Source: a virus (taxonomy: Duplodnaviria; Heunggongvirae; Uroviricota; Caudoviricetes). Taken from it: DNA of 39,437 bases. Shown here piece by piece: positions 681-39,437 of this stretch. The stretch's first letter is position 1. Every line of letters begins with the position of its first letter. A program made the position numbers and the translations under genes. The stretch lies in IMG/VR virus record IMGVR_UViG_2687453623_000006, one strand, 5' to 3'. The notes below the pieces were generated by a model, which saw only the letters and a list, made by a program, of their open reading frames with translations, did no database searches and was not told the DNA's origin.

Positions 681-1069
681 TCCTCTCTCATCTCCTTGTC
701 CATTATTTAATCATTGTAATGCACACAAGCACTGTGCACAAGTGCAACAATCAACTCCATTTGCGCCATCCCTCCCCGCGCGCTAGCATGATATTTCACA
801 AAGGGAGGTCGTATGGATCTGTTGTACCGGGTAAAAACGCTTTGGGCCGCGCTGCGCGGTAATCATTACACCTTGATCAGACATGAGATAAATGAAGGGG
901 GATCCGTGAGATAAATAACGAATTGGAGTGGGTTAACATGGGTTCTGGTGAACAGAACTGAAATTCTTTTCCGCTATACGATAGATAAGTCGGGCATTGA
1001 AATCATCCTTCCTGGCAACTTAGAATCGAGTTTGCTGAAACATGACCCGTAACAAAAAGGATGATTCCA

Positions 1070-1231
1070 ATGACTACTCAAAACAATAAGCATGACAGCC
1101 TGGATTACTCAGAAAAGCCCAAAAGCAAGCACATTGTGACGTTCGAGCGCGATTCCGGTAGAAAAGGAGAATCGTCTTCCTCTGCCAATAAAACCACTAT
1201 GCCGGCAGCTCCTGCTCCAGGGAAAAAATAA
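1070..1231 (+). CDS. hypothetical small hydrophilic protein (53 aa), doubtful
   Basis: ATG at 1070 preceded by AAGGA about 9 nt upstream; below the ORF-track cutoff; stop abuts the stop of a convergent minus-strand gene. Confidence 0.2.
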   Translation: MTTQNNKHDSLDYSEKPKSKHIVTFERDSGRKGESSSSANKTTMPAAPAPGKK

Positions 1232-1234
1232 ACA

Positions 1235-1867
1235 TCATTCATCGTTCGTTGCACGAACGCGCCTGATCTCCACTCTGGCAATCTGATCTGCTGGAATATA
1301 GGTTGCCAGAGCTCCCCAGTACTTATCAACCACGCCTTTATACTCTTCCCATTCGTTACTTCCTGAAGGGCTGCTGTGCGTGACGTAAAGAACCATATCG
1401 CCTTTATTTCCCAGGGTAAACGGACCGTTAGGCCACTCTTCAAAGTTCCCTGGCAGCCGTGACATCATACCGGAACCATCGCGAAGAATCACTCTGACCT
1501 CGGTGACGCTGAAGCCTGTTTGATCAAACATTGCCTGCCATGCTGAGCTGGTATTGTCAGACCATGAAATATCATTATTCCACAGTAATCTGTACATCCA
1601 TTTGCGACCGTACCTGCGCCACCACGCACCGCATGTAACGGCACACAGAAGTGCTGGGGGGGTTGCCAGCCAGGCATTCAGACCTGCCCACATAACAGCC
1701 TGGTAAGCCATCATTGCTGTCAGGCCAAAAATCAGCGAAGAAAAAGTCACCTCAATGGGTTTGTGGTGATCCTTCAGCCCCACATTCGCAATAAAATACC
1801 CAATATAGCCACTGGTCAGGGTCACCAGTGTTGCCCATGGCAGATTTAATAACGAAACGTCAAACAT
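1235..1867 (-). CDS. membrane protein of unknown function (N-terminal transmembrane segments plus soluble C-terminal domain); prophage cargo candidate
   Basis: Long minus ORF (1235..1945); preferred start is the internal ATG at 1867 (MFDVSLL...) with GGGAGAA RBS; hydrophobic stretches LVTLTSGYIGYFIANVGL, FSSLIFGLTAMMAYQAVMWAGL, PALLCAVTCGAWW; same strand and just downstream of mor. Confidence 0.6.
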   Translation of the reverse strand: MFDVSLLNLPWATLVTLTSGYIGYFIANVGLKDHHKPIEVTFSSLIFGLTAMMAYQAVMWAGLNAWLATPPALLCAVTCGAWWRRYGRKWMYRLLWNNDISWSDNTSSAWQAMFDQTGFSVTEVRVILRDGSGMMSRLPGNFEEWPNGPFTLGNKGDMVLYVTHSSPSGSNEWEEYKGVVDKYWGALATYIPADQIARVEIRRVRATNDE

Positions 1868-1981
1868 ATTTTCTCCCTGCATCCTGAATATTACATAGAG
1901 AGCATAAAAAAAGCACGGTAAAGGGTCTACCGTGCTCTTATACAATAAGGAGATTTTTGAAAGGACTTTAACAAGCAGGAA

Positions 1982-2380
1982 TTATCTGGATTTGTTAACG
2001 TCTTTCGTCTCCTCTGGCAGATCTTCATCAAACAACCTGCCCTGCATCCGATCCAGTTCTTCTTTTCTGACCCGCTTAACCACGCTGTAGACCCACTGAA
2101 GCGAAACACCAAACTTGCGGGCCAGTTCGTGGTGGTTGCGTCCGTTAAACTCCCTGAAGATTTCCCGGTCGCGCTGACTGACCTTCCATACCATGCCCAT
2201 CGGGAAATAAACGTTTTGCCCGCCCCAGACCTGCATCATTCGGTTCGCGACGGCCTGACCAATCTGGTCGGCAATTGCGGGCTCAATATCAATAATCTCG
2301 CGAACGGTCTCAGAGGTATGCTGTGCCAGCTCCACCAGGAGTTCCGGCCCTTTACTTCGAAACTGATTCAGGTCGCTCAT
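1982..2380 (-). CDS. mor: Mor/C-family transcriptional activator
   Basis: 132-aa ORF with C-terminal HTH (HHELARKFGVSLQWVYSVVKRVRKEE) and size typical of Mu Mor; last recognisable early gene. Confidence 0.75.
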   Translation of the reverse strand: MSDLNQFRSKGPELLVELAQHTSETVREIIDIEPAIADQIGQAVANRMMQVWGGQNVYFPMGMVWKVSQRDREIFREFNGRNHHELARKFGVSLQWVYSVVKRVRKEELDRMQGRLFDEDLPEETKDVNKSR

Positions 2381-2804
2381 GTTTGACTCCCGCAGCTCTG
2401 CGCTGCCACTTCTTCAGTTTCTCAATAACACTGCTTGCCTGTTCAGTACTGAGCCAGCGCAGGGCGCTGATGCCCGTTTCCCGCTTGATCCACCGCGCTA
2501 ATGCATTTTCTGAACGGTCACGAACAATGCCGGCAGCAGCCATTTCAAGCCATAGCGCACGGATTTTCCTGGACTGCGGATGGTTATCCAGCGGTAAACC
2601 GGAGCTGGCTTTTCCGGCAGGCTTAACGCGAAAGCCTTTCCTTTTCATGGATTCCAGCACGCAGTTTAGTTGTGTGGTATCCATTCCTTTGGTTGAGGCT
2701 TTACCGGTCAGCCCCTGTAACATCTGGCGGTAGGTGTCTTCATCCATACCCAGTTCATTACGGGCAATATGAATGAGCTGGATAAGACGTTGTTTAGTCA
2801 TCAT
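2352..2804 (-). CDS. gemA: GemA-like protein (Mu gp16 family)
   Basis: ORF 2352..2843; preferred start ATGATG at 2804 with AAGGAG RBS; N-terminal MTKQRLIQLIHIARNELGMDEDTYRQML resembles GemA; lies immediately upstream of mor as in Mu. Confidence 0.6.
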   Translation of the reverse strand: MMTKQRLIQLIHIARNELGMDEDTYRQMLQGLTGKASTKGMDTTQLNCVLESMKRKGFRVKPAGKASSGLPLDNHPQSRKIRALWLEMAAAGIVRDRSENALARWIKRETGISALRWLSTEQASSVIEKLKKWQRRAAGVKHERPESVSK

Positions 2805-3009
2805 CGTTGCTCCTTTTACCTGCGCCACCGATATAATCGACATATAAAGGAAGCGCCACAGGCCAGCACAGGAACATCACCGACCAGCTAATCCAGTAGC
2901 CAGCACCACTGTAACGTGAATAAAACCCTGAACGGCGGTGCAGTTCAGCAGTACACCAACCGACAAAACAATACCAGAACAGGGCACATACAACAGATTC
3001 AGCCGTCAT
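2794..3009 (-). CDS. small hydrophobic protein (about 71 aa), hypothetical
   Basis: Internal start of ORF 2794..3165 (MTAESVVCALFWYCFVGW...) gives a tightly packed small gene with two hydrophobic segments. Confidence 0.3.
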   Translation of the reverse strand: MTAESVVCALFWYCFVGWCTAELHRRSGFYSRYSGAGYWISWSVMFLCWPVALPLYVDYIGGAGKRSNDDD

Positions 3010-3229
3010 TCTGAATATCCCCCCAACTGATATGAATATTACGGGCAGCAATGACAGGGTCGTTATTCCACCATGCACCTGACATGTATTTTTCAACCTG
3101 TTCGCGTCCGGCAATAACACCAATTGTGATCCCCGGCCTGACGTTCTTAAAAAAGGCGCGGGCAAAAAGGTATCTGGCAGATATTCGGCAGGCTTTTAAT
3201 TTCCGGCTTTTACCTGATAGCGTAATCAT
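2999..3229 (-). CDS. hypothetical protein (76 aa)
   Basis: ORF packed between the DUF2786-like gene and the small membrane ORF in the early operon; no recognisable motif. Confidence 0.3.
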   Translation of the reverse strand: MITLSGKSRKLKACRISARYLFARAFFKNVRPGITIGVIAGREQVEKYMSGAWWNNDPVIAARNIHISWGDIQNDG

Positions 3230-3909
3230 CTGGCCTCCAGTTTCTGTTGTTCCTGCCCACTGACCGGGCGGTGCAGTCTGACGTTCTGCCCTTCAAGAAA
3301 CCCCGCATAGCGCGAGGCGTCGCCATTGCGGCTTCTTCCCGGTTTACGCGCCCTGGTGGTTTGCGTCTGCGGGTATTTATGTTCCAGCCACTGCTGCATC
3401 AGTTCACGTTCGTCATCGGTCAGGGCGAAGGACTGTATTTCACTGATAACGGCCAGCACCCAGCCTTCAGCAAACTGGTCACCACGGCTGGTACGGGTGG
3501 CAGTTTTTATTCTTTTGTTCTGTGCGCTGATATATTGCTGACGCGCCTTTTTCAGCTGGCGGGCCAGCACTTCCCAGGTGTACGCAGCCAGTGCAGCCCG
3601 TTCCCGGTTGCCGTAGAACCCCACACCCGGATATGTGCCGGGGTGAATGATGGAGTTAACACCAAATGCCTCGCGGATGATGTTCATCAGGCCCAGCATG
3701 TAGCGCGGTGGACGGAGGCTGCCTGTCGGCCAGTAGTGACTGATGGTTTCATCAATATCACTCATGGCGATGTCGGAATGTGTGATGCCGTGAACATCCA
3801 TCAGTTTACGGGCACGGCGCAGTGCCAGAGCGGCCTCGTGAGGGTTGCCGGATGCGGCCAGCGCCAGCAACTTTTTCAGTTTCTCAATGTGTTTATCCTG
3901 GTCTGTCAT
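3226..3909 (-). CDS. DUF2786-like phage protein
   Basis: 227 aa; N-terminal IEKLKKLLALAASGNPHEAALALRRARKLM is the characteristic DUF2786 motif; start overlaps the upstream stop. Confidence 0.55.
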   Translation of the reverse strand: MTDQDKHIEKLKKLLALAASGNPHEAALALRRARKLMDVHGITHSDIAMSDIDETISHYWPTGSLRPPRYMLGLMNIIREAFGVNSIIHPGTYPGVGFYGNRERAALAAYTWEVLARQLKKARQQYISAQNKRIKTATRTSRGDQFAEGWVLAVISEIQSFALTDDERELMQQWLEHKYPQTQTTRARKPGRSRNGDASRYAGFLEGQNVRLHRPVSGQEQQKLEAR

Positions 3910-4211
3910 TGTTCAGTATCTCCGGTGTACATGACGCCCAGCCGTGCGGCAAGGCGTTCCAGTTTTTTCTGTTTGTGGAAGTCAATCAGCCGGTCCATTC
4001 CCTGAAGGCGCAGCTGCTCTGTCATGATTTCCACGTCTGCCAGCTCTGCCGCGAGGTCACTTTCGCTGCCCTGTCCGTTCAGGTTGCGGGCGGCACTGGC
4101 CGCCAGTTCAGCGGCCTCTTCTGTCAGTTTCAGGGCCTGTGCGTCCGGCCCGAAACGCTGCAGGGCCAGACGGTAGAGGGCGGTGCGGGTGAGTTCGGTG
4201 TTCCGTGTCAT
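3906..4211 (-). CDS. hypothetical protein, possible MazG-like all-alpha NTP pyrophosphohydrolase domain
   Basis: 101 aa; acidic helical motifs LTEEAAELAASAARNL and SDLAAELADVEIMTEQL resemble the EExxE/ExxD metal-binding helices of MazG/HisE-type domains; weak. Confidence 0.4.
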   Translation of the reverse strand: MTRNTELTRTALYRLALQRFGPDAQALKLTEEAAELAASAARNLNGQGSESDLAAELADVEIMTEQLRLQGMDRLIDFHKQKKLERLAARLGVMYTGDTEQ

Positions 4212-4220
4212 GCCGCGCCC

Positions 4221-4493
4221 TCAGTGTTTCCGGTCGACGGTGATGTGCAGGCCGCCTTCTGCAGTGGTTTCCATCCGGTACGGCACCTCATGCTCTGCCG
4301 TGTGGGTGAGTGTGTTCATCAGTACCTGCAGGGCAGCCTCCTTTCCGTTGGTCGCCACAATGGCCTGTGTGGCCATGCTGATTAGCGCCGTCAGGACGTG
4401 CTTCACATCGGTGAGGTCGCGGCATTCACACTCGTTGACATAGTGTTCAACAAGGGTTCGGGTGCGCTGTCGTGCTTCCTGTGGGGTAATCAT
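4221..4493 (-). CDS. hypothetical early protein (90 aa)
   Basis: ORF in the co-directional early gene string; start overlaps the upstream stop (ATGA-type coupling). Confidence 0.4.
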   Translation of the reverse strand: MITPQEARQRTRTLVEHYVNECECRDLTDVKHVLTALISMATQAIVATNGKEAALQVLMNTLTHTAEHEVPYRMETTAEGGLHITVDRKH

Positions 4494-4684
4494 TGCGCGT
4501 CCTCCCTGTCAGGGCGGGAGAATTCCATGACGGGCACGTCCGCCGAAAAATGCTGGCTGCAGTACGGGCAGACCAGGGTGACACGTACTGCAGGTATGTG
4601 ATACTTACCGGACATCACGGCGATGGCGCTGTGAAAACGCAGGGCTGTTATATCCCTCTCGCACTGAATACATTTAAATATCAT
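4490..4684 (-). CDS. small zinc-ribbon-like protein (64 aa)
   Basis: Two Cys pairs, CIQC and CPYC, spaced about 33 residues apart; GAGGAG upstream of the start. Confidence 0.4.
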   Translation of the reverse strand: MIFKCIQCERDITALRFHSAIAVMSGKYHIPAVRVTLVCPYCSQHFSADVPVMEFSRPDREDAQ

Positions 4685-4781
4685 AATTTAATTCTCCTCT
4701 GTTTCCGGCGTGCAGAAGCCCACGGCGCTGACGCCGGAATAAAAAAGAAAATGTTTTTATTAAATAATTAACGTGGTGTGT

Positions 4782-10133: not shown

Positions 10134-10472
10134 ATGATCGGGTTACGTATTAAAGAAGAAAGAGAGCGTCTATCTCTTACACAGCAAGGGTTGGCTGATG
10201 CTATAGGTGTGGCAAAGAGAACTTTCATTGATTGGGAAAAAGATCGCACTTCTCCTACTGCAGTGCAGTTATCTGCACTATCAGAAATCGGTGTAGATAT
10301 TTTGTATGTAGTTACTGGGGTGCGGAGTCAGCCTGTTGTTGCACCTTATGTGTCACAAGAAAAGAAAGAGTTAATGGATGCATTCGACGAAATGAGCCCC
10401 GAACAACGGAGGGCAATTCTTGAGGTCGGCAAAGTCTTCATTCAACCCAAACCAAGCAAACTCGCAGGCTGA
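10134..10472 (+). CDS. XRE-family HTH repressor (lysogeny repressor candidate)
   Basis: Track ORF 9981..10472; HTH domain begins at the internal ATG 10134 (MIGLRIKEERERLSLTQQGLADAIGVAKRTFIDWEKDRTSPT); divergent from the early operon. Confidence 0.65.
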   Translation: MIGLRIKEERERLSLTQQGLADAIGVAKRTFIDWEKDRTSPTAVQLSALSEIGVDILYVVTGVRSQPVVAPYVSQEKKELMDAFDEMSPEQRRAILEVGKVFIQPKPSKLAG

Positions 10473-10557: not shown

Positions 10558-10590
10558 ACCGGAAAGCATTGTGCTTTCCGGTTTTGTTTC
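10558..10590 (+). terminator. Rho-independent terminator downstream of the repressor
   Basis: Perfect 11-bp stem ACCGGAAAGCA/TGCTTTCCGGT with 3-nt loop followed by TTTTGTTTC. Confidence 0.5.
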
Positions 10591-11353
10591 AGAAGTTGCA
10601 GATTACCAGTTCACGGCGCGGCGTAGATTTCCCCGCCAGACTGTAGTTGATGTTCACTGTCTGTATGTTCAGTCCAGTGAACACCTCGCGCATCTGTGGG
10701 ATATCGTTCACCGAAATTATCATTTTTCCTCTGATGCACCGGGCCAGCTCTGCCAGCCGCGAGTAGTTCCCTTCAGGAAAATCCACACCATAGCCTTCCG
10801 TACCCAGGTACGGTGGGTCGCAGTAGAACAGTGTGTGCGGACGATCATAACGCTCAATGCACTGTTGCCAGTCCATGTGTTCTATGACTGTTCTGGAAAG
10901 CCGCAGGTGTGCTGCTGACAGTTCTTCTTCAATACGCAGCAGGTTGAAGCGTGGCGGGGATGTGGTGGAGGTACCGAAGCTGTGCTCTGCCACCTTGCCG
11001 CCAAACGCCTGCTTCTGAAGGTAGTAGAACCGTGCCGCACGCTGGATATCCGTCAGTGTTTCTTCCGGGGTGATCTGCAGCCATTTGTAGATCTGACGGC
11101 TGACCAGCGCCCATTTGAACTGGCGGACAAATTCTTCCAGGTGATGCTTTACCACCCGGTACAGATTCACCAGTTCACCGTTGATATCATTGATGACTTC
11201 GATCTTGCCGGGTGTCTTAAGAAAATAGAGCGCTGCTGCCCCACAAAACGGCTCCACATAACATTCATGCGCCGGAAACAGCGGCAGGATGTGTTTTGCC
11301 AGGCGACGTTTGCCACCAATCCATGGAACGATGGGTAATGTCTTCATTTTCAT
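10589..11353 (-). CDS. dam: Dam-family DNA N6-adenine methyltransferase (orphan)
   Basis: 254 aa; N-terminal WIGGKRRL, SAM-binding motif EPFCGAAALYF, catalytic motif DPPY; no adjacent restriction endonuclease. Confidence 0.8.
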   Translation of the reverse strand: MKMKTLPIVPWIGGKRRLAKHILPLFPAHECYVEPFCGAAALYFLKTPGKIEVINDINGELVNLYRVVKHHLEEFVRQFKWALVSRQIYKWLQITPEETLTDIQRAARFYYLQKQAFGGKVAEHSFGTSTTSPPRFNLLRIEEELSAAHLRLSRTVIEHMDWQQCIERYDRPHTLFYCDPPYLGTEGYGVDFPEGNYSRLAELARCIRGKMIISVNDIPQMREVFTGLNIQTVNINYSLAGKSTPRRELVICNF

Positions 11354-11544
11354 AATCTGTAAGCCTTTTACAATTATTAAAAATATGGCAGGCTAGTCTG
11401 GTCTCGCGAGACTGACTGAACCTCGGTCGGCTCACAGCCACTTCTGTGGGACGATGGCCAGCCCGGTGGGTCCGAAGCACCGGGCTGGTCGTTCTTTCAT
11501 GATGCGGCAGGGATAGTGGGATTTCTGTTAATGTGGTTTAGGGA

Positions 11545-11760
11545 TTATCCGGGGCGATTTTCTGACCTTATCCGGTCCAGGGCATAAGTAATACCTTCTG
11601 CAAAAACAGAAGTATCAAACTGCTTTTGTATTCCCTGAAAATGAAAAGCGGCACGACAGACACTCAGTTCTCCGCGATGTAACCGGATAATATCTTCCAG
11701 AACATTGTTCACTGCTTCAGCACGGCGCTGATGTTCTGTTAACGTTAATCGGGGATTCAT
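11545..11760 (-). CDS. hypothetical protein (71 aa)
   Basis: ATG at 11760 preceded by AAGGAG at good spacing; no recognisable motif. Confidence 0.4.
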   Translation of the reverse strand: MNPRLTLTEHQRRAEAVNNVLEDIIRLHRGELSVCRAAFHFQGIQKQFDTSVFAEGITYALDRIRSENRPG

Positions 11761-12163
11761 GATGCACTCCTTAAATGATGATTTTTATGCACTCACCGGC
11801 AAAATATTCTGCCGATTACTGAACACGCATCCGGCACCTCAGGTTTTGATTTATTCTGGTTTTTTCGATATCCCGGACCAGGTTGATCACGACCAGAAAA
11901 AGTGCCGGTATTTTATTGATACGCTGATATGGCTTCGGGATAACAGCTATATTCGTTACTCTCAGTTGCTGGCTGTGGGAGCGGCTGATGTCGTCCTCAC
12001 GGAAAAAACGCTCCGTCTGCTCAATGCCACGCCGACCCTTCTGCAGCCCCGGCCCGCACCATTTAAAGAGTCACTTCTGGATGCAGTAAAAACCGGTGAA
12101 AATGCAGTCATCGCTGAATGCGTATCCCGGATTATGCGTTACGTGTTTAATGAACGTAAGTGA
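11759..12163 (+). CDS. hypothetical protein (134 aa)
   Basis: Start codon overlaps the start of the divergent 71-aa ORF; GGGGA upstream; 3' end overlaps the convergent P-loop gene by 25 bp. Confidence 0.3.
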   Translation: MMHSLNDDFYALTGKIFCRLLNTHPAPQVLIYSGFFDIPDQVDHDQKKCRYFIDTLIWLRDNSYIRYSQLLAVGAADVVLTEKTLRLLNATPTLLQPRPAPFKESLLDAVKTGENAVIAECVSRIMRYVFNERK

Positions 12164-12882
12164 GGTTTATCCGCTGTCTGCATAATCCCGATAGCCAGTG
12201 CGAGGGGAAGTAATTCCGGGGAAACTCTTTCAAACAGCGACTCCCATTCTCCTCTCGCCATCACTCTGTCCAGCCCGCCCCCCAGTTGCATTTCAGCAAT
12301 CTTCCTGATTTCCCGGAACAACGCCGCTTTGATCTCTTCGTGCTCAGCTTTATTTTCCGGTGTCAGAATGTATTCGTCGAAGAACCGGGGAGGCTGGTTA
12401 ACGGGGAGCGTGTTCACCGGGATGTGTTCCTGTTTCCCGTACTTCGGGGCAGAAAAACATTCTGTTGGCTGACCGGTGAGTTTACGTAGCTCCTTCATGA
12501 GCAGCTCCTGATCGTAAACTGTCATCAGTGCCGCAATGGTGGCATGCAGTGCATCGGGCAGTATCCAGGGTTGCCGGCCCGTGGGGCATATAACATCCAG
12601 CAGCTCATTCGTCCGACAGATACGCTCCTCGCCGTATGACAACAGGCCCTGTCCCGTGTATTCCTCCAGCCTGATCACTGTGCCACCCCGTGGCTTCTGC
12701 CAGGTCGTCAGATCATCGCCACTCATACGCCGCTCATCATCTACGTCTGCAGCATCGACAATGACGCTGCCCCCGAATTCCTGTTTCACCACTTCCTCTA
12801 TCCGCGCCAATATGTAACTTTTACCGCTGCCCACAGGACCGGACACGGTGACAGTGATGACCGGATTCAGTGTCTGCGTCAT
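12139..12882 (-). CDS. P-loop NTPase of unknown function
   Basis: 247 aa; Walker A GPVGSGKS at residues 15-22, candidate Walker B VIVDAADVDDE; GAGGAG RBS; transcribed divergently from the late operon. Confidence 0.55.
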   Translation of the reverse strand: MTQTLNPVITVTVSGPVGSGKSYILARIEEVVKQEFGGSVIVDAADVDDERRMSGDDLTTWQKPRGGTVIRLEEYTGQGLLSYGEERICRTNELLDVICPTGRQPWILPDALHATIAALMTVYDQELLMKELRKLTGQPTECFSAPKYGKQEHIPVNTLPVNQPPRFFDEYILTPENKAEHEEIKAALFREIRKIAEMQLGGGLDRVMARGEWESLFERVSPELLPLALAIGIMQTADKPHLRSLNT

Positions 12883-13012
12883 ATCGTATTCTCCTCTGTG
12901 AATAATTCATCGTTTATCCTGCACATCCCGTATCCCCGGCTCTCTTAACGCGCTTTAAAATCCTTCGCGCCCTGTATTTGTGATGCTGTCTCCACCAGAC
13001 AAGGAGACACAC

Positions 13013-13363
13013 ATGAAAAACCTGAAAAAATTCATTCCCCCTGTTAAAAAACCTCGCCTCAGCGGCTGGCTGCTGACCTCAGTGCTGTTGCTGGGCACCA
13101 TCGCTCTGGTCTCGCCACAGCAGTTGCCTGTTGTGATCTACAAGCTGGCACTCATCACGCTGGCAGCAGTGCTGGGTTACTGGCTTGACCGTTCGCTCTT
13201 CCCCAAAGCCCGTCCCGGTCAGTACCTGAAACATGACGACAGGCTGATGGCTGATGGGCGTTTCCCGGTACAGACCGGCCTTCACCTGGTGTTTTCTGCT
13301 GCGTTAATCCGCCGTGCACTGATTGTTGCAGCGGTCTGTCTGGCTGTTGCGATGGGGCTTTAA
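13013..13363 (+). CDS. putative holin / lysis membrane protein
   Basis: Track ORF from GTG 12980; preferred ATG 13013 with AAGGAG RBS; three hydrophobic segments; immediately upstream of the endolysin. Confidence 0.45.
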   Translation: MKNLKKFIPPVKKPRLSGWLLTSVLLLGTIALVSPQQLPVVIYKLALITLAAVLGYWLDRSLFPKARPGQYLKHDDRLMADGRFPVQTGLHLVFSAALIRRALIVAAVCLAVAMGL

Positions 13364-20201: not shown

Positions 20202-20415
20202 GTTTTCTCTCTTCAGGCGGGTGATTTATCATTGCCAGCGAATGAGGGGCTGTATTACCTTTATAAAGGCTTTACAGCCTCTGTTTTATAACCGCCTCCG
20301 GTTCACCGCATTGCTTTCCCTGTCCTTCTCCCCTGATGTTTTCTAAAGCAGATTAAAATCGCCGGGCCTGCATTTCTCACAAACTGTCTCCGACAACATA
20401 ACGCGGGACAGCAAA

Positions 20416-32884: not shown

Positions 32885-32938
32885 GCTTTTTAAACGCCTT
32901 TAATATCAGCGTTCCCGCACGGGGGCAATACTGCCCCC

Positions 32939-38864: not shown

Positions 38865-39437
38865 ATGCTGATTGGCTACATACGTGTGTCAACAAATGAC
38901 CAAAACACAGATTTGCAACGCAATGCATTAATGTGCGCAGGATGTGAACAGATTTTTGAGGACAAAATGAGCGGAACCAAGTCGGAACGACCAGGCCTGA
39001 AACGCGCTTTAAAGTGCCTTAAAAGAGGGGATACATTGGTGGTCTGGAAGCTGGATCGGTTGGGTAGAAGAATGAAACACCTCATTGCTCTCACAGAAGA
39101 GCTACGCGCAAAAGGTGTCAATTTTCGCAGTCTGACGGATTCAATCGATACCAGCACTCCGATGGGAAGGTTCTTTTTTCATATGATGGGTGCACTGGCA
39201 GAAATGGAGCGTGAACTGATAGTTGAGCGCACGCTGGCAGGACTGGCTGCTGCGCGAGCACAAGGAAGAGTTGGAGGACGTCGCCCGAAACTGACGAAGG
39301 AGCAGCATGAGCAGATCGCAAGATTGCTCCAGAAAGGGTATGACAGAAAGCGGCTGGCAATTATCTATGATATTGGACTGTCAACGATCTACCGCTACCA
39401 CCCTGTTGGGACTGTCATAACGCAACCTGAAATGTAA
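38865..39437 (+). CDS. gin: Gin/Hin/Cin-family serine DNA invertase
   Basis: 190 aa from ATG 38865 (AAGGGAG RBS); MLIGYIRVSTNDQNTDLQRNAL with catalytic Ser, C-terminal HTH; near-identical in pattern to Mu Gin as recalled; adjacent to inverted-repeat-flanked fibre cassettes. Confidence 0.85.
   Translation: MLIGYIRVSTNDQNTDLQRNALMCAGCEQIFEDKMSGTKSERPGLKRALKCLKRGDTLVVWKLDRLGRRMKHLIALTEELRAKGVNFRSLTDSIDTSTPMGRFFFHMMGALAEMERELIVERTLAGLAAARAQGRVGGRRPKLTKEQHEQIARLLQKGYDRKRLAIIYDIGLSTIYRYHPVGTVITQPEM

Follow-up and report, generated by a model that had tools for sequence, protein, structure and literature searches.

In Mu-like prophages, DNA methyltransferases of the D12 class can replace Mom behind com, with undetectable activity in lysogens (PMC3299994). 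These mom-position enzymes are described as silent in the lysogenic state and have been proposed as protectors of phage DNA (PMC3299994). A further D12-class enzyme, the orphan M.EcoMIV, is encoded on prophage Phi2 of Escherichia coli EC958; no motif could be assigned to it, and its transcription in LB medium is far below that of dam (PMC4659465). Here we analyze a locus with an enzyme of this class in the IMG/VR record IMGVR_UViG_2687453623_000006 (Caudoviricetes; the whole stretch of 39,437 nucleotides is hereafter called the window), namely the segment between repressor and lysis genes at positions 10,558 to 12,882, which holds a methyltransferase gene (dam) and genes for proteins of 71, 134, and 247 amino acids (aa). 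With a probability of roughly 0.6, we read this segment as the cargo region of a BcepMu-like prophage, assembled from mosaic pieces that include a late anti-restriction dam cassette gated by its own messenger RNA (mRNA) leader. The new result is that, in many temperate phages, methylases of this family come with a conserved structured leader. This RNA, located within the 191-nt gap ("intergenic") that precedes dam, had been overlooked in a preliminary description of the segment.

The leader is about 145 nt long and lies on the minus strand (11351..11498), ending at the dam start codon (covariance model 123 bits, E 2.8e-31). Its minimum free energy in the window is -54.6 kcal/mol (z = -4.06). 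The helices were derived by alignment and RNAalifold: P0 (11491-11493/11419-11421) closes a junction, P1 (11458-11488) forms a long hairpin with a UUCG loop in the window, P2 lies at 11433-11448, and P3 (11390-11422) is a hairpin present in every aligned sequence. The ∼150 nt upstream of dam are conserved among E. coli, Klebsiella, Serratia, and Salmonella, whichever gene precedes. From 80 dam loci collected in IMG/VR, we aligned 29 diverse upstream regions with MAFFT, and found 92.4% of cells paired (versus 27-44% in slid controls), 105 double-change cells (versus 13-25), and a covariation score of 0.47 (versus ≤0.10); none of 500 shuffles reached the observed pairing percentage, double-change counts, or covariation score. 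A model-based alignment of 40 sequences, including those of phiE125, VP882, and B3, gave 93.0% pairing versus 26-44% in slid controls, 161 double-change (compensatory) cells versus ≤41, and a covariation score of 0.51 versus ≤0.11. Double changes occur at 17 of 23 pairs, and the UUCG/GNRA-type loops as well as the many G-U pairs fit the dam-sense strand only.

The covariance model detects the leader in 70 of the 80 dam loci, always on the sense strand, and its 3′ end always falls at the first start codon, which is that of dam or, where present, that of com. An independent retrieval, using a degenerate DNA pattern of the P2/junction core alone, returned 120 viral loci, 116 of them with room downstream. 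A same-strand dam homolog, 54-99% identical to the window protein, was found in 115 of these 116, beginning 40-90 nt downstream (one at ∼200 nt), and the single exception looks like a remnant without dam. We conclude that this leader RNA exists, covaries, and is linked to dam. It is absent from Mu and BcepMu. Rfam 15 yielded no match to the window leader at E<=1, and over 12 diverse loci only a sub-threshold ctRNA_pGA1 match on the opposite strand of one locus; no prior account of a dam-associated RNA motif was found in the literature searched, which did not cover the supplement of the 224-motif paper. A role as replacement for Com could be ruled out, since the leader precedes com wherever com occurs. 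In phage B3, two small open reading frames (ORFs), ORF45 and ORF46, are annotated in this leader region ahead of com. The motif (L115 1211-1346, 41 bits) overlaps the tiny ORF46 and borders on ORF45; ORF46 probably does not encode a protein, and the same may hold for ORF45, a correction to the annotation.

At its 3′ end the leader carries a predicted start-sequestering helix, in which positions 11357-11366 pair with either 11390-11394 (P4) or 11429-11437 (P5). The conserved GGCUUACAG immediately 5′ of the AUG can pair with the AGCCU located after P3 to form P4, or alternatively with CUGUGAGCC to form P5; the latter segment includes the 3′ strand of P2, and P2 and P5 are mutually exclusive. Because P5 uses the 3′ strand of P2, formation of P2 would free the ribosome-binding region. 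This layout is that of a translational switch. The leader most likely controls dam translation through this release of the ribosome-binding region, probably as the gate of a methylase that acts late and against restriction. More tentatively, it could represent a new class of RNA switch, riboswitch or factor-responsive, that would permit translation of a potentially harmful DNA adenine methyltransferase only when the phage cycle calls for it, and that would be common to Mu-like, lambda-like, and telomere-phage lineages across Proteobacteria. We regard it as unlikely that the leader is specifically a riboswitch for a small molecule, such as S-adenosylmethionine (SAM), S-adenosylhomocysteine, or a metabolite of lytic growth, toggling P2 against the start-sequestering helix. 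The multi-helix architecture with highly conserved unpaired junction nucleotides, the two mutually exclusive pairings at the start region, and the linkage solely to a SAM-dependent enzyme would all suit such a sensor, as would the presence of the leader upstream of com, where it would act on whichever ORF comes first; yet the leader bears no likeness to any Rfam riboswitch, its alternative helices covary weakly, and a protein-binding or RNA-stability role fits the same data.

Two full copies of the leader flank an inserted paralogue of the 134-aa gene in relatives L005 (2379-2524 and 3014-3161) and L018 (3960-4105 and 4595-4740), and the leader may also be a recombination junction for cassette exchange. 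That the element works at the level of DNA, as a site for recombination or cassette joining, or is only a passive part of the mRNA, such as a 5′ stabilizer or processing signal, is quite improbable. The compensatory changes in four helices, the G-U pairs restricted to one strand, and the UUCG/GNRA loops denote selection on an RNA fold rather than on a DNA site, and the end of the motif lies always exactly at a start codon, even if the element moves with dam as a unit regardless of upstream content, the flanking copies in L005 and L018 are what cassette recombination would give, and the long GC-rich 5′ hairpin P1 is typical of mRNA stabilizers.

The gene downstream of the leader, dam (10589..11353, minus strand), encodes a D12-class N6-adenine methyltransferase of 254 aa, which matches PF02086 (E 5.9e-29; 102 bits versus a cut-off of 22) and TIGR00571 (117.4 bits versus a cut-off of 114.85). 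The catalytic DPPY motif (FYCDPPYLG) and an FxGxG-type SAM-binding motif (EPFCGAAAL) are present and align to DpnM and EcoDam. Nuclease and restriction endonuclease domains are absent from its neighbors in Pfam, NCBIfam, and PADLOC scans, and the enzyme is thus an orphan. Comparison of the window gene with that of a Serratia prophage of the same type reveals 123 synonymous versus 41 non-synonymous codon differences, i.e., strong purifying selection. The preliminary description was therefore right about a Dam-family enzyme lacking a partner endonuclease. The enzyme is 99% identical to that of the Mu-like prophage of EC958 (ST131), which has the same four-gene island; the EC958 enzyme is very probably the catalogued M.EcoMIV (the assignment to EC958_1101 follows from position and description). 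Homologs with 60-66% identity are found in the Burkholderia phages KS9, phiE125, and phi1026b, Vibrio VP882, Halomonas phiHAP-1, Pseudomonas B3, and others, and members of the family occur in 527 of 5,426 complete E. coli genomes (∼10%). Well-studied phages of Burkholderia, Pseudomonas, and Vibrio carry it as well.

In some dozen IMG/VR loci, dam is directly preceded by a Com-type zinc-finger ORF, the Com-bearing relatives being L056, L064-L072, L079, L094, and B3. The B3 enzyme ORF48, 63% identical to the window methylase, comes after the Com homolog. No Com ORF was found in the window. In L079 (2303-3250), the Com zinc-finger and the Dam domain share one uninterrupted reading frame, which may be a natural Com-Dam fusion. 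By analogy, we read the methylase as the equivalent of Mom, an enzyme whose DNA modification would protect the phage, and the dam cassette as a self-contained counterpart of the Mu com-mom operon that would consist of a probable late promoter, the ∼145-nt structured leader, and the D12-class methyltransferase. Dam would be near-silent in the lysogen, and during lytic growth the enzyme would methylate phage DNA as it replicates, letting the progeny evade restriction in the host infected next.

The promoter side of this proposal draws on a dyad, TTAACGCGCTTTAAAA, that lies upstream of holin and is kept from BcepMu through E. coli. In the window this late lysis promoter dyad (12945..12960, plus strand) precedes the likely transcription start by ∼42 nt, and we count 11 dyad-related sites versus 0.41 expected by chance, among them 20343-20358, 32888-32903, and 39007-39024. 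They probably serve this phage group as late promoter sites of the Mor/C type. A weak dyad-like sequence, CTAAACCACATTAAC (11524..11541, minus strand), is located ∼30-40 nt upstream of the 5′ end of the leader and is a candidate site of this type, and in the E. coli relative L007 the strong lysis-promoter dyad itself lies ∼50 nt upstream of the leader. This suggests, by analogy to Mu mom, an activator-dependent late transcription of dam.

Several observations weigh against the reading of a leader-gated, late, anti-restriction cassette. Covariation of P4 and P5 is modest and much weaker than that of P1, P2, and P0, and the match to the dyad upstream of the window leader is only weak. As for the enzyme itself, the EcoDam equivalog model fails (NF008152, 68 bits versus a cut-off of 441), and the DNA-contact residues of EcoDam are not conserved in the alignment (K9 is replaced by P, R124 by A), hence GATC specificity cannot be assumed. 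Some relatives nevertheless have GATC clusters upstream of dam, and the enzyme may still be GATC-specific, which would, in Dam+ hosts, weaken a simple anti-restriction role. Finally, lysogens of phi1026b transcribe their dam homolog at a moderate level (21,563 versus 1,000-4,700 for structural genes; PMC2920897), and silence in lysogens is therefore not general.

It is nonetheless very doubtful that the methylase acts mainly in the lysogen, in an epigenetic function or as a host "vaccination". Transcription in phi1026b lysogens (PMC2920897) and the proposal that orphan methylases guard their hosts against incoming restriction-modification systems (PMC4659465) would speak for such a role, but M.EcoMIV in EC958 has no attributable methylation motif and is lowly transcribed (PMC4659465), and both the Com-linked relatives and the analogy to the mom position point to late expression.

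Judged from sequence comparison, the window is a BcepMu-like transposable prophage. The closest isolated phage, PhiKM (Escherichia phage, genus Bcepmuvirus), is 96.6% identical to it, and prophages of this type are common in E. coli, ST131 included. Leftward of the segment lie genes for an XRE repressor (ending at 10472), a Ner-like protein, an IclR-type helix-turn-helix protein, a DUF3102 protein, and a DDE transposase; rightward lie those for a holin, an SLT endolysin, and Mu-type packaging functions. The early operon reads leftward and the late operon rightward. A terminator scan places an intrinsic-terminator-like hairpin, with an 11-bp stem followed by a T-run, directly past the repressor gene (10558..10582, plus strand). 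The variable region is bounded by this hairpin on the left and by the lysis promoter dyad on the right. The start codon of the holin is probably the ATG at 13013, preceded by a good GGAG ribosome-binding site and chosen by PGAP, rather than the GTG at 12980 that opens the longest ORF (12980-13363).

Between these flanks, gene content differs from relative to relative. BcepMu has gp18-gp20 and no Dam; Klebsiella phage KP12 has a 177-aa gene, Dam, and a 188-aa gene; E. coli L007 has a nucleoid-associated protein, a 401-aa protein, and Dam; and E. coli L006 has two unrelated genes followed by a 158-aa stub of the 247-aa protein, referred to below as the P-loop protein. E. coli L005 and L018 contain the four genes of the window plus a paralogue of the 134-aa gene. 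The 134-aa gene itself is deleted except for 18 codons in L026 and L027 and interrupted by an in-frame stop in L023, while its neighbors remain intact. In Salmonella diarizonae, the P-loop protein ends in a different C-terminus and is accompanied by Dam and by three genes that read in the direction of the repressor. Dam thus occurs without the P-loop gene in L007, KP12, and Serratia, and the P-loop N-domain without Dam in L006. In the complete E. coli genomes (n = 5,426), the lysis module has 705 occurrences, this dam 573, and the segment comprising the 71-aa gene, the 134-aa gene, and the C-terminal part of the 247-aa gene 530; the four-gene arrangement of the window is the commonest one in E. 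coli (530/705 prophage copies). In L007 (1690-3905), the nucleoid-associated protein and the 401-aa protein are co-oriented with the repressor, and may form a better candidate for a lysogen-expressed defense pair than the genes of the window.

From these comparisons, the segment is best described as a mosaic of independently exchangeable pieces, each gained, lost, or truncated separately in relatives. Besides the dam cassette, it would comprise a pair of small, fast-evolving genes (71 and 134 aa), and a modular protein in which a 75-aa Walker-A mini-domain, found near the late/lysis region in several phages, is joined to mosaic C-terminal modules. This agrees with the preliminary description as to the setting between repressor and lysis cassette (XRE-type repressor on one side, holin and SLT endolysin on the other) and as to a moron/hotspot position; the four genes are not an invariant core, as content varies between relatives. 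Its proposal of an anti-restriction or defense module stands in one part, since work on Mu-like prophages is in line with an anti-restriction methylase (PMC3299994), but the methylase and the supposed NTPase are not partners. Its idea of one undescribed system was not borne out, as the components assort independently. PADLOC 2.0 matched methyltransferase models only; on the non-methylase genes it gave no convincing defense model, the weak matches to mad8 (E 0.0046) and SngB (E 0.028) both lying at the Walker A region. That methylase, P-loop protein, and two small ORFs form a single defense or anti-defense system is thus highly improbable: although the genes are adjacent in a cargo hotspot, their arrangement is the most frequent one in E. 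coli and is retained in Serratia, and the small genes evolve at the fast pace often seen in arms races, each gene occurs, disappears, or is truncated independently in relatives (Dam alone in L007, the P-loop stub alone in L006, a Serratia version without the P-loop domain, the 134-aa gene deleted or stop-bearing next to intact neighbors), only methyltransferase models are matched in PADLOC, and both strands are used, with overlapping start codons and 3′ ends.

The three genes next to dam are the 71-aa gene (11545..11760, minus strand; phrog_4490), the 134-aa gene (11759..12163, plus strand; phrog_2266), and the gene of the 247-aa modular protein (12139..12882, minus strand; phrog_3787), whose Walker-A mini-domain occupies residues 1-75 (nt 12658-12882). 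We found the same four ORFs, in position and size, as had been described before, and NCBI PGAP calls the same four genes on an identical E. coli chromosome. They had also been said to be oriented against their neighbors, which applies to three of them and not to the 134-aa gene on the plus strand; start codons and 3′ ends overlap between the strands. The Serratia prophage has the same layout, with Dam of 256 aa (minus), 73 aa (minus), 139 aa (plus), and 89 aa (minus), and with all four ORFs open there, these are genes and not chance ORFs. Protein identity between window and Serratia is 83% for Dam, 31% for the 71-aa, 53% for the 134-aa, and 48% for the 247-aa protein, the Serratia 89-aa protein matching only the C-terminal module of the latter. 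Other proteins of the E. coli and Serratia prophages are less alike, with identities of 51% (transposase), 59% (portal), and 65% (SLT endolysin) next to the 83% of Dam. On these values, the dam cassette appears to be either horizontally exchanged or far more constrained than the phage backbone. The 134-aa gene shows 51/36/77 differences at codon positions 1/2/3, a weaker coding signature than that of Dam, and natural variants can dispense with it. Changes in the 71-aa and 134-aa genes among close E. coli variants are mostly non-synonymous, a pattern that indicates weak constraint or diversifying selection.

Little can be said of the two small proteins by homology: the 71-aa protein has no detectable relatives outside these prophages, and the 134-aa protein has one distant homolog, in the early region of a Campylobacter prophage. 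Pfam did not reproduce, even at E<=10, the name DUF2513 carried by the Serratia homolog of the latter. The alignment pattern of the 134-aa protein recalls a winged helix-turn-helix, a reading that we do not put forward. We also rejected a type II toxin-antitoxin pair for these two genes, which are divergent with overlapping start codons, and of which the 134-aa gene can be lost or stopped while the 71-aa gene is intact. A 24-nt direct repeat (75% identity) with TTAAC-type half-sites has its first copy at 11523-11546, on the upstream side of the dam leader, and its second at 11734-11757, where the starts of the 71-aa and 134-aa genes overlap; it could serve as an operator or be a chance occurrence.

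The 247-aa protein had been called a P-loop protein. Its Walker A motif (GPVGSGKS) is indeed present, but all matches to NTPase families are sub-threshold and span residues ∼3-52 only, the Walker-B-like D43 is not conserved, and the protein lacks the full set of features of an ABC/AAA P-loop NTPase. The full protein belongs to a narrow E. coli family with deletion variants. Residues 1 to ∼75 make up a domain that recurs in 55 representative clusters, where it is joined to mosaic C-terminal modules, and in which G15, G20, K21, W61, and P64 are invariant; the middle and C-terminal modules are optional. A scan of genome contigs for this N-domain returned four loci only. In enteric BcepMu-like prophages, the gene lies divergently beside the holin promoter, and in a Pseudomonas prophage a gene with this domain is found between lysis-like genes and terminase. 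The middle module (residues ∼107-142) matches ten repeated stretches in a 2018-aa protein, P0055. The structure and remote-homology searches that had been suggested for the three proteins were not informative: PDB sequence searches returned nothing for any of them, and AlphaFold2 models from shallow alignments were unusable, with predicted local distance difference test (pLDDT) values of 43.5 (247 aa) and 54.0 (134 aa). Foldseek, run with the low-confidence 134-aa model, produced only meaningless globin matches at E>1.

Compared to described systems, the site resembles prophage cargo ("moron") hotspots in its fixed flanks and in the swappable gene content across relatives, and differs from them in that the variant of the window gave no recognized defense system. 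The gap between repressor and lysis genes of BcepMu-like prophages is thus a cargo hotspot to mine for other variants. With mRNA leaders and riboswitches that sequester ribosome-binding sites, the dam leader shares a multi-helix 5′ untranslated region with conserved junctions that abuts the start codon and has alternative start-region pairings, and it stands apart from known cis-regulatory leaders in matching no Rfam 15 family. It offers a testable handle on how temperate phages silence a DNA-modifying enzyme in the lysogen. In the relatives L073-L075, which have no leader, four to five GATC sites lie within ∼60 nt, ∼100 nt upstream of dam, and recall the Dam/OxyR-controlled mom promoter of Mu.

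Among enzymes, M.EcoMIV of EC958 is the nearest, with the D12 class and the four-gene island in common at 99% identity. The mom-position D12 enzymes Hin1523, Hia5, Nma1821, and B3 ORF47-48 (PMC3299994) belong to the same enzyme class and phage type as the window enzyme; for the mom-position enzymes, relaxed specificity was shown by experiment, and an RNA leader is undescribed there. Mu com-mom differs from the window cassette in its enzyme (Mom versus a D12 SAM-dependent methyltransferase), in the presence of com, in its location at the right end rather than between repressor and lysis genes, and in having no 145-nt leader. Both are accessory DNA-modification functions of transposable phages, and a Com zinc-finger gene stands directly upstream also in relatives of the window methylase. 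Multi-layer control including sequestration of the translation start is known for Mu and would apply to the window cassette as well, in which case the Mu com-mom model would gain an RNA-based layer.

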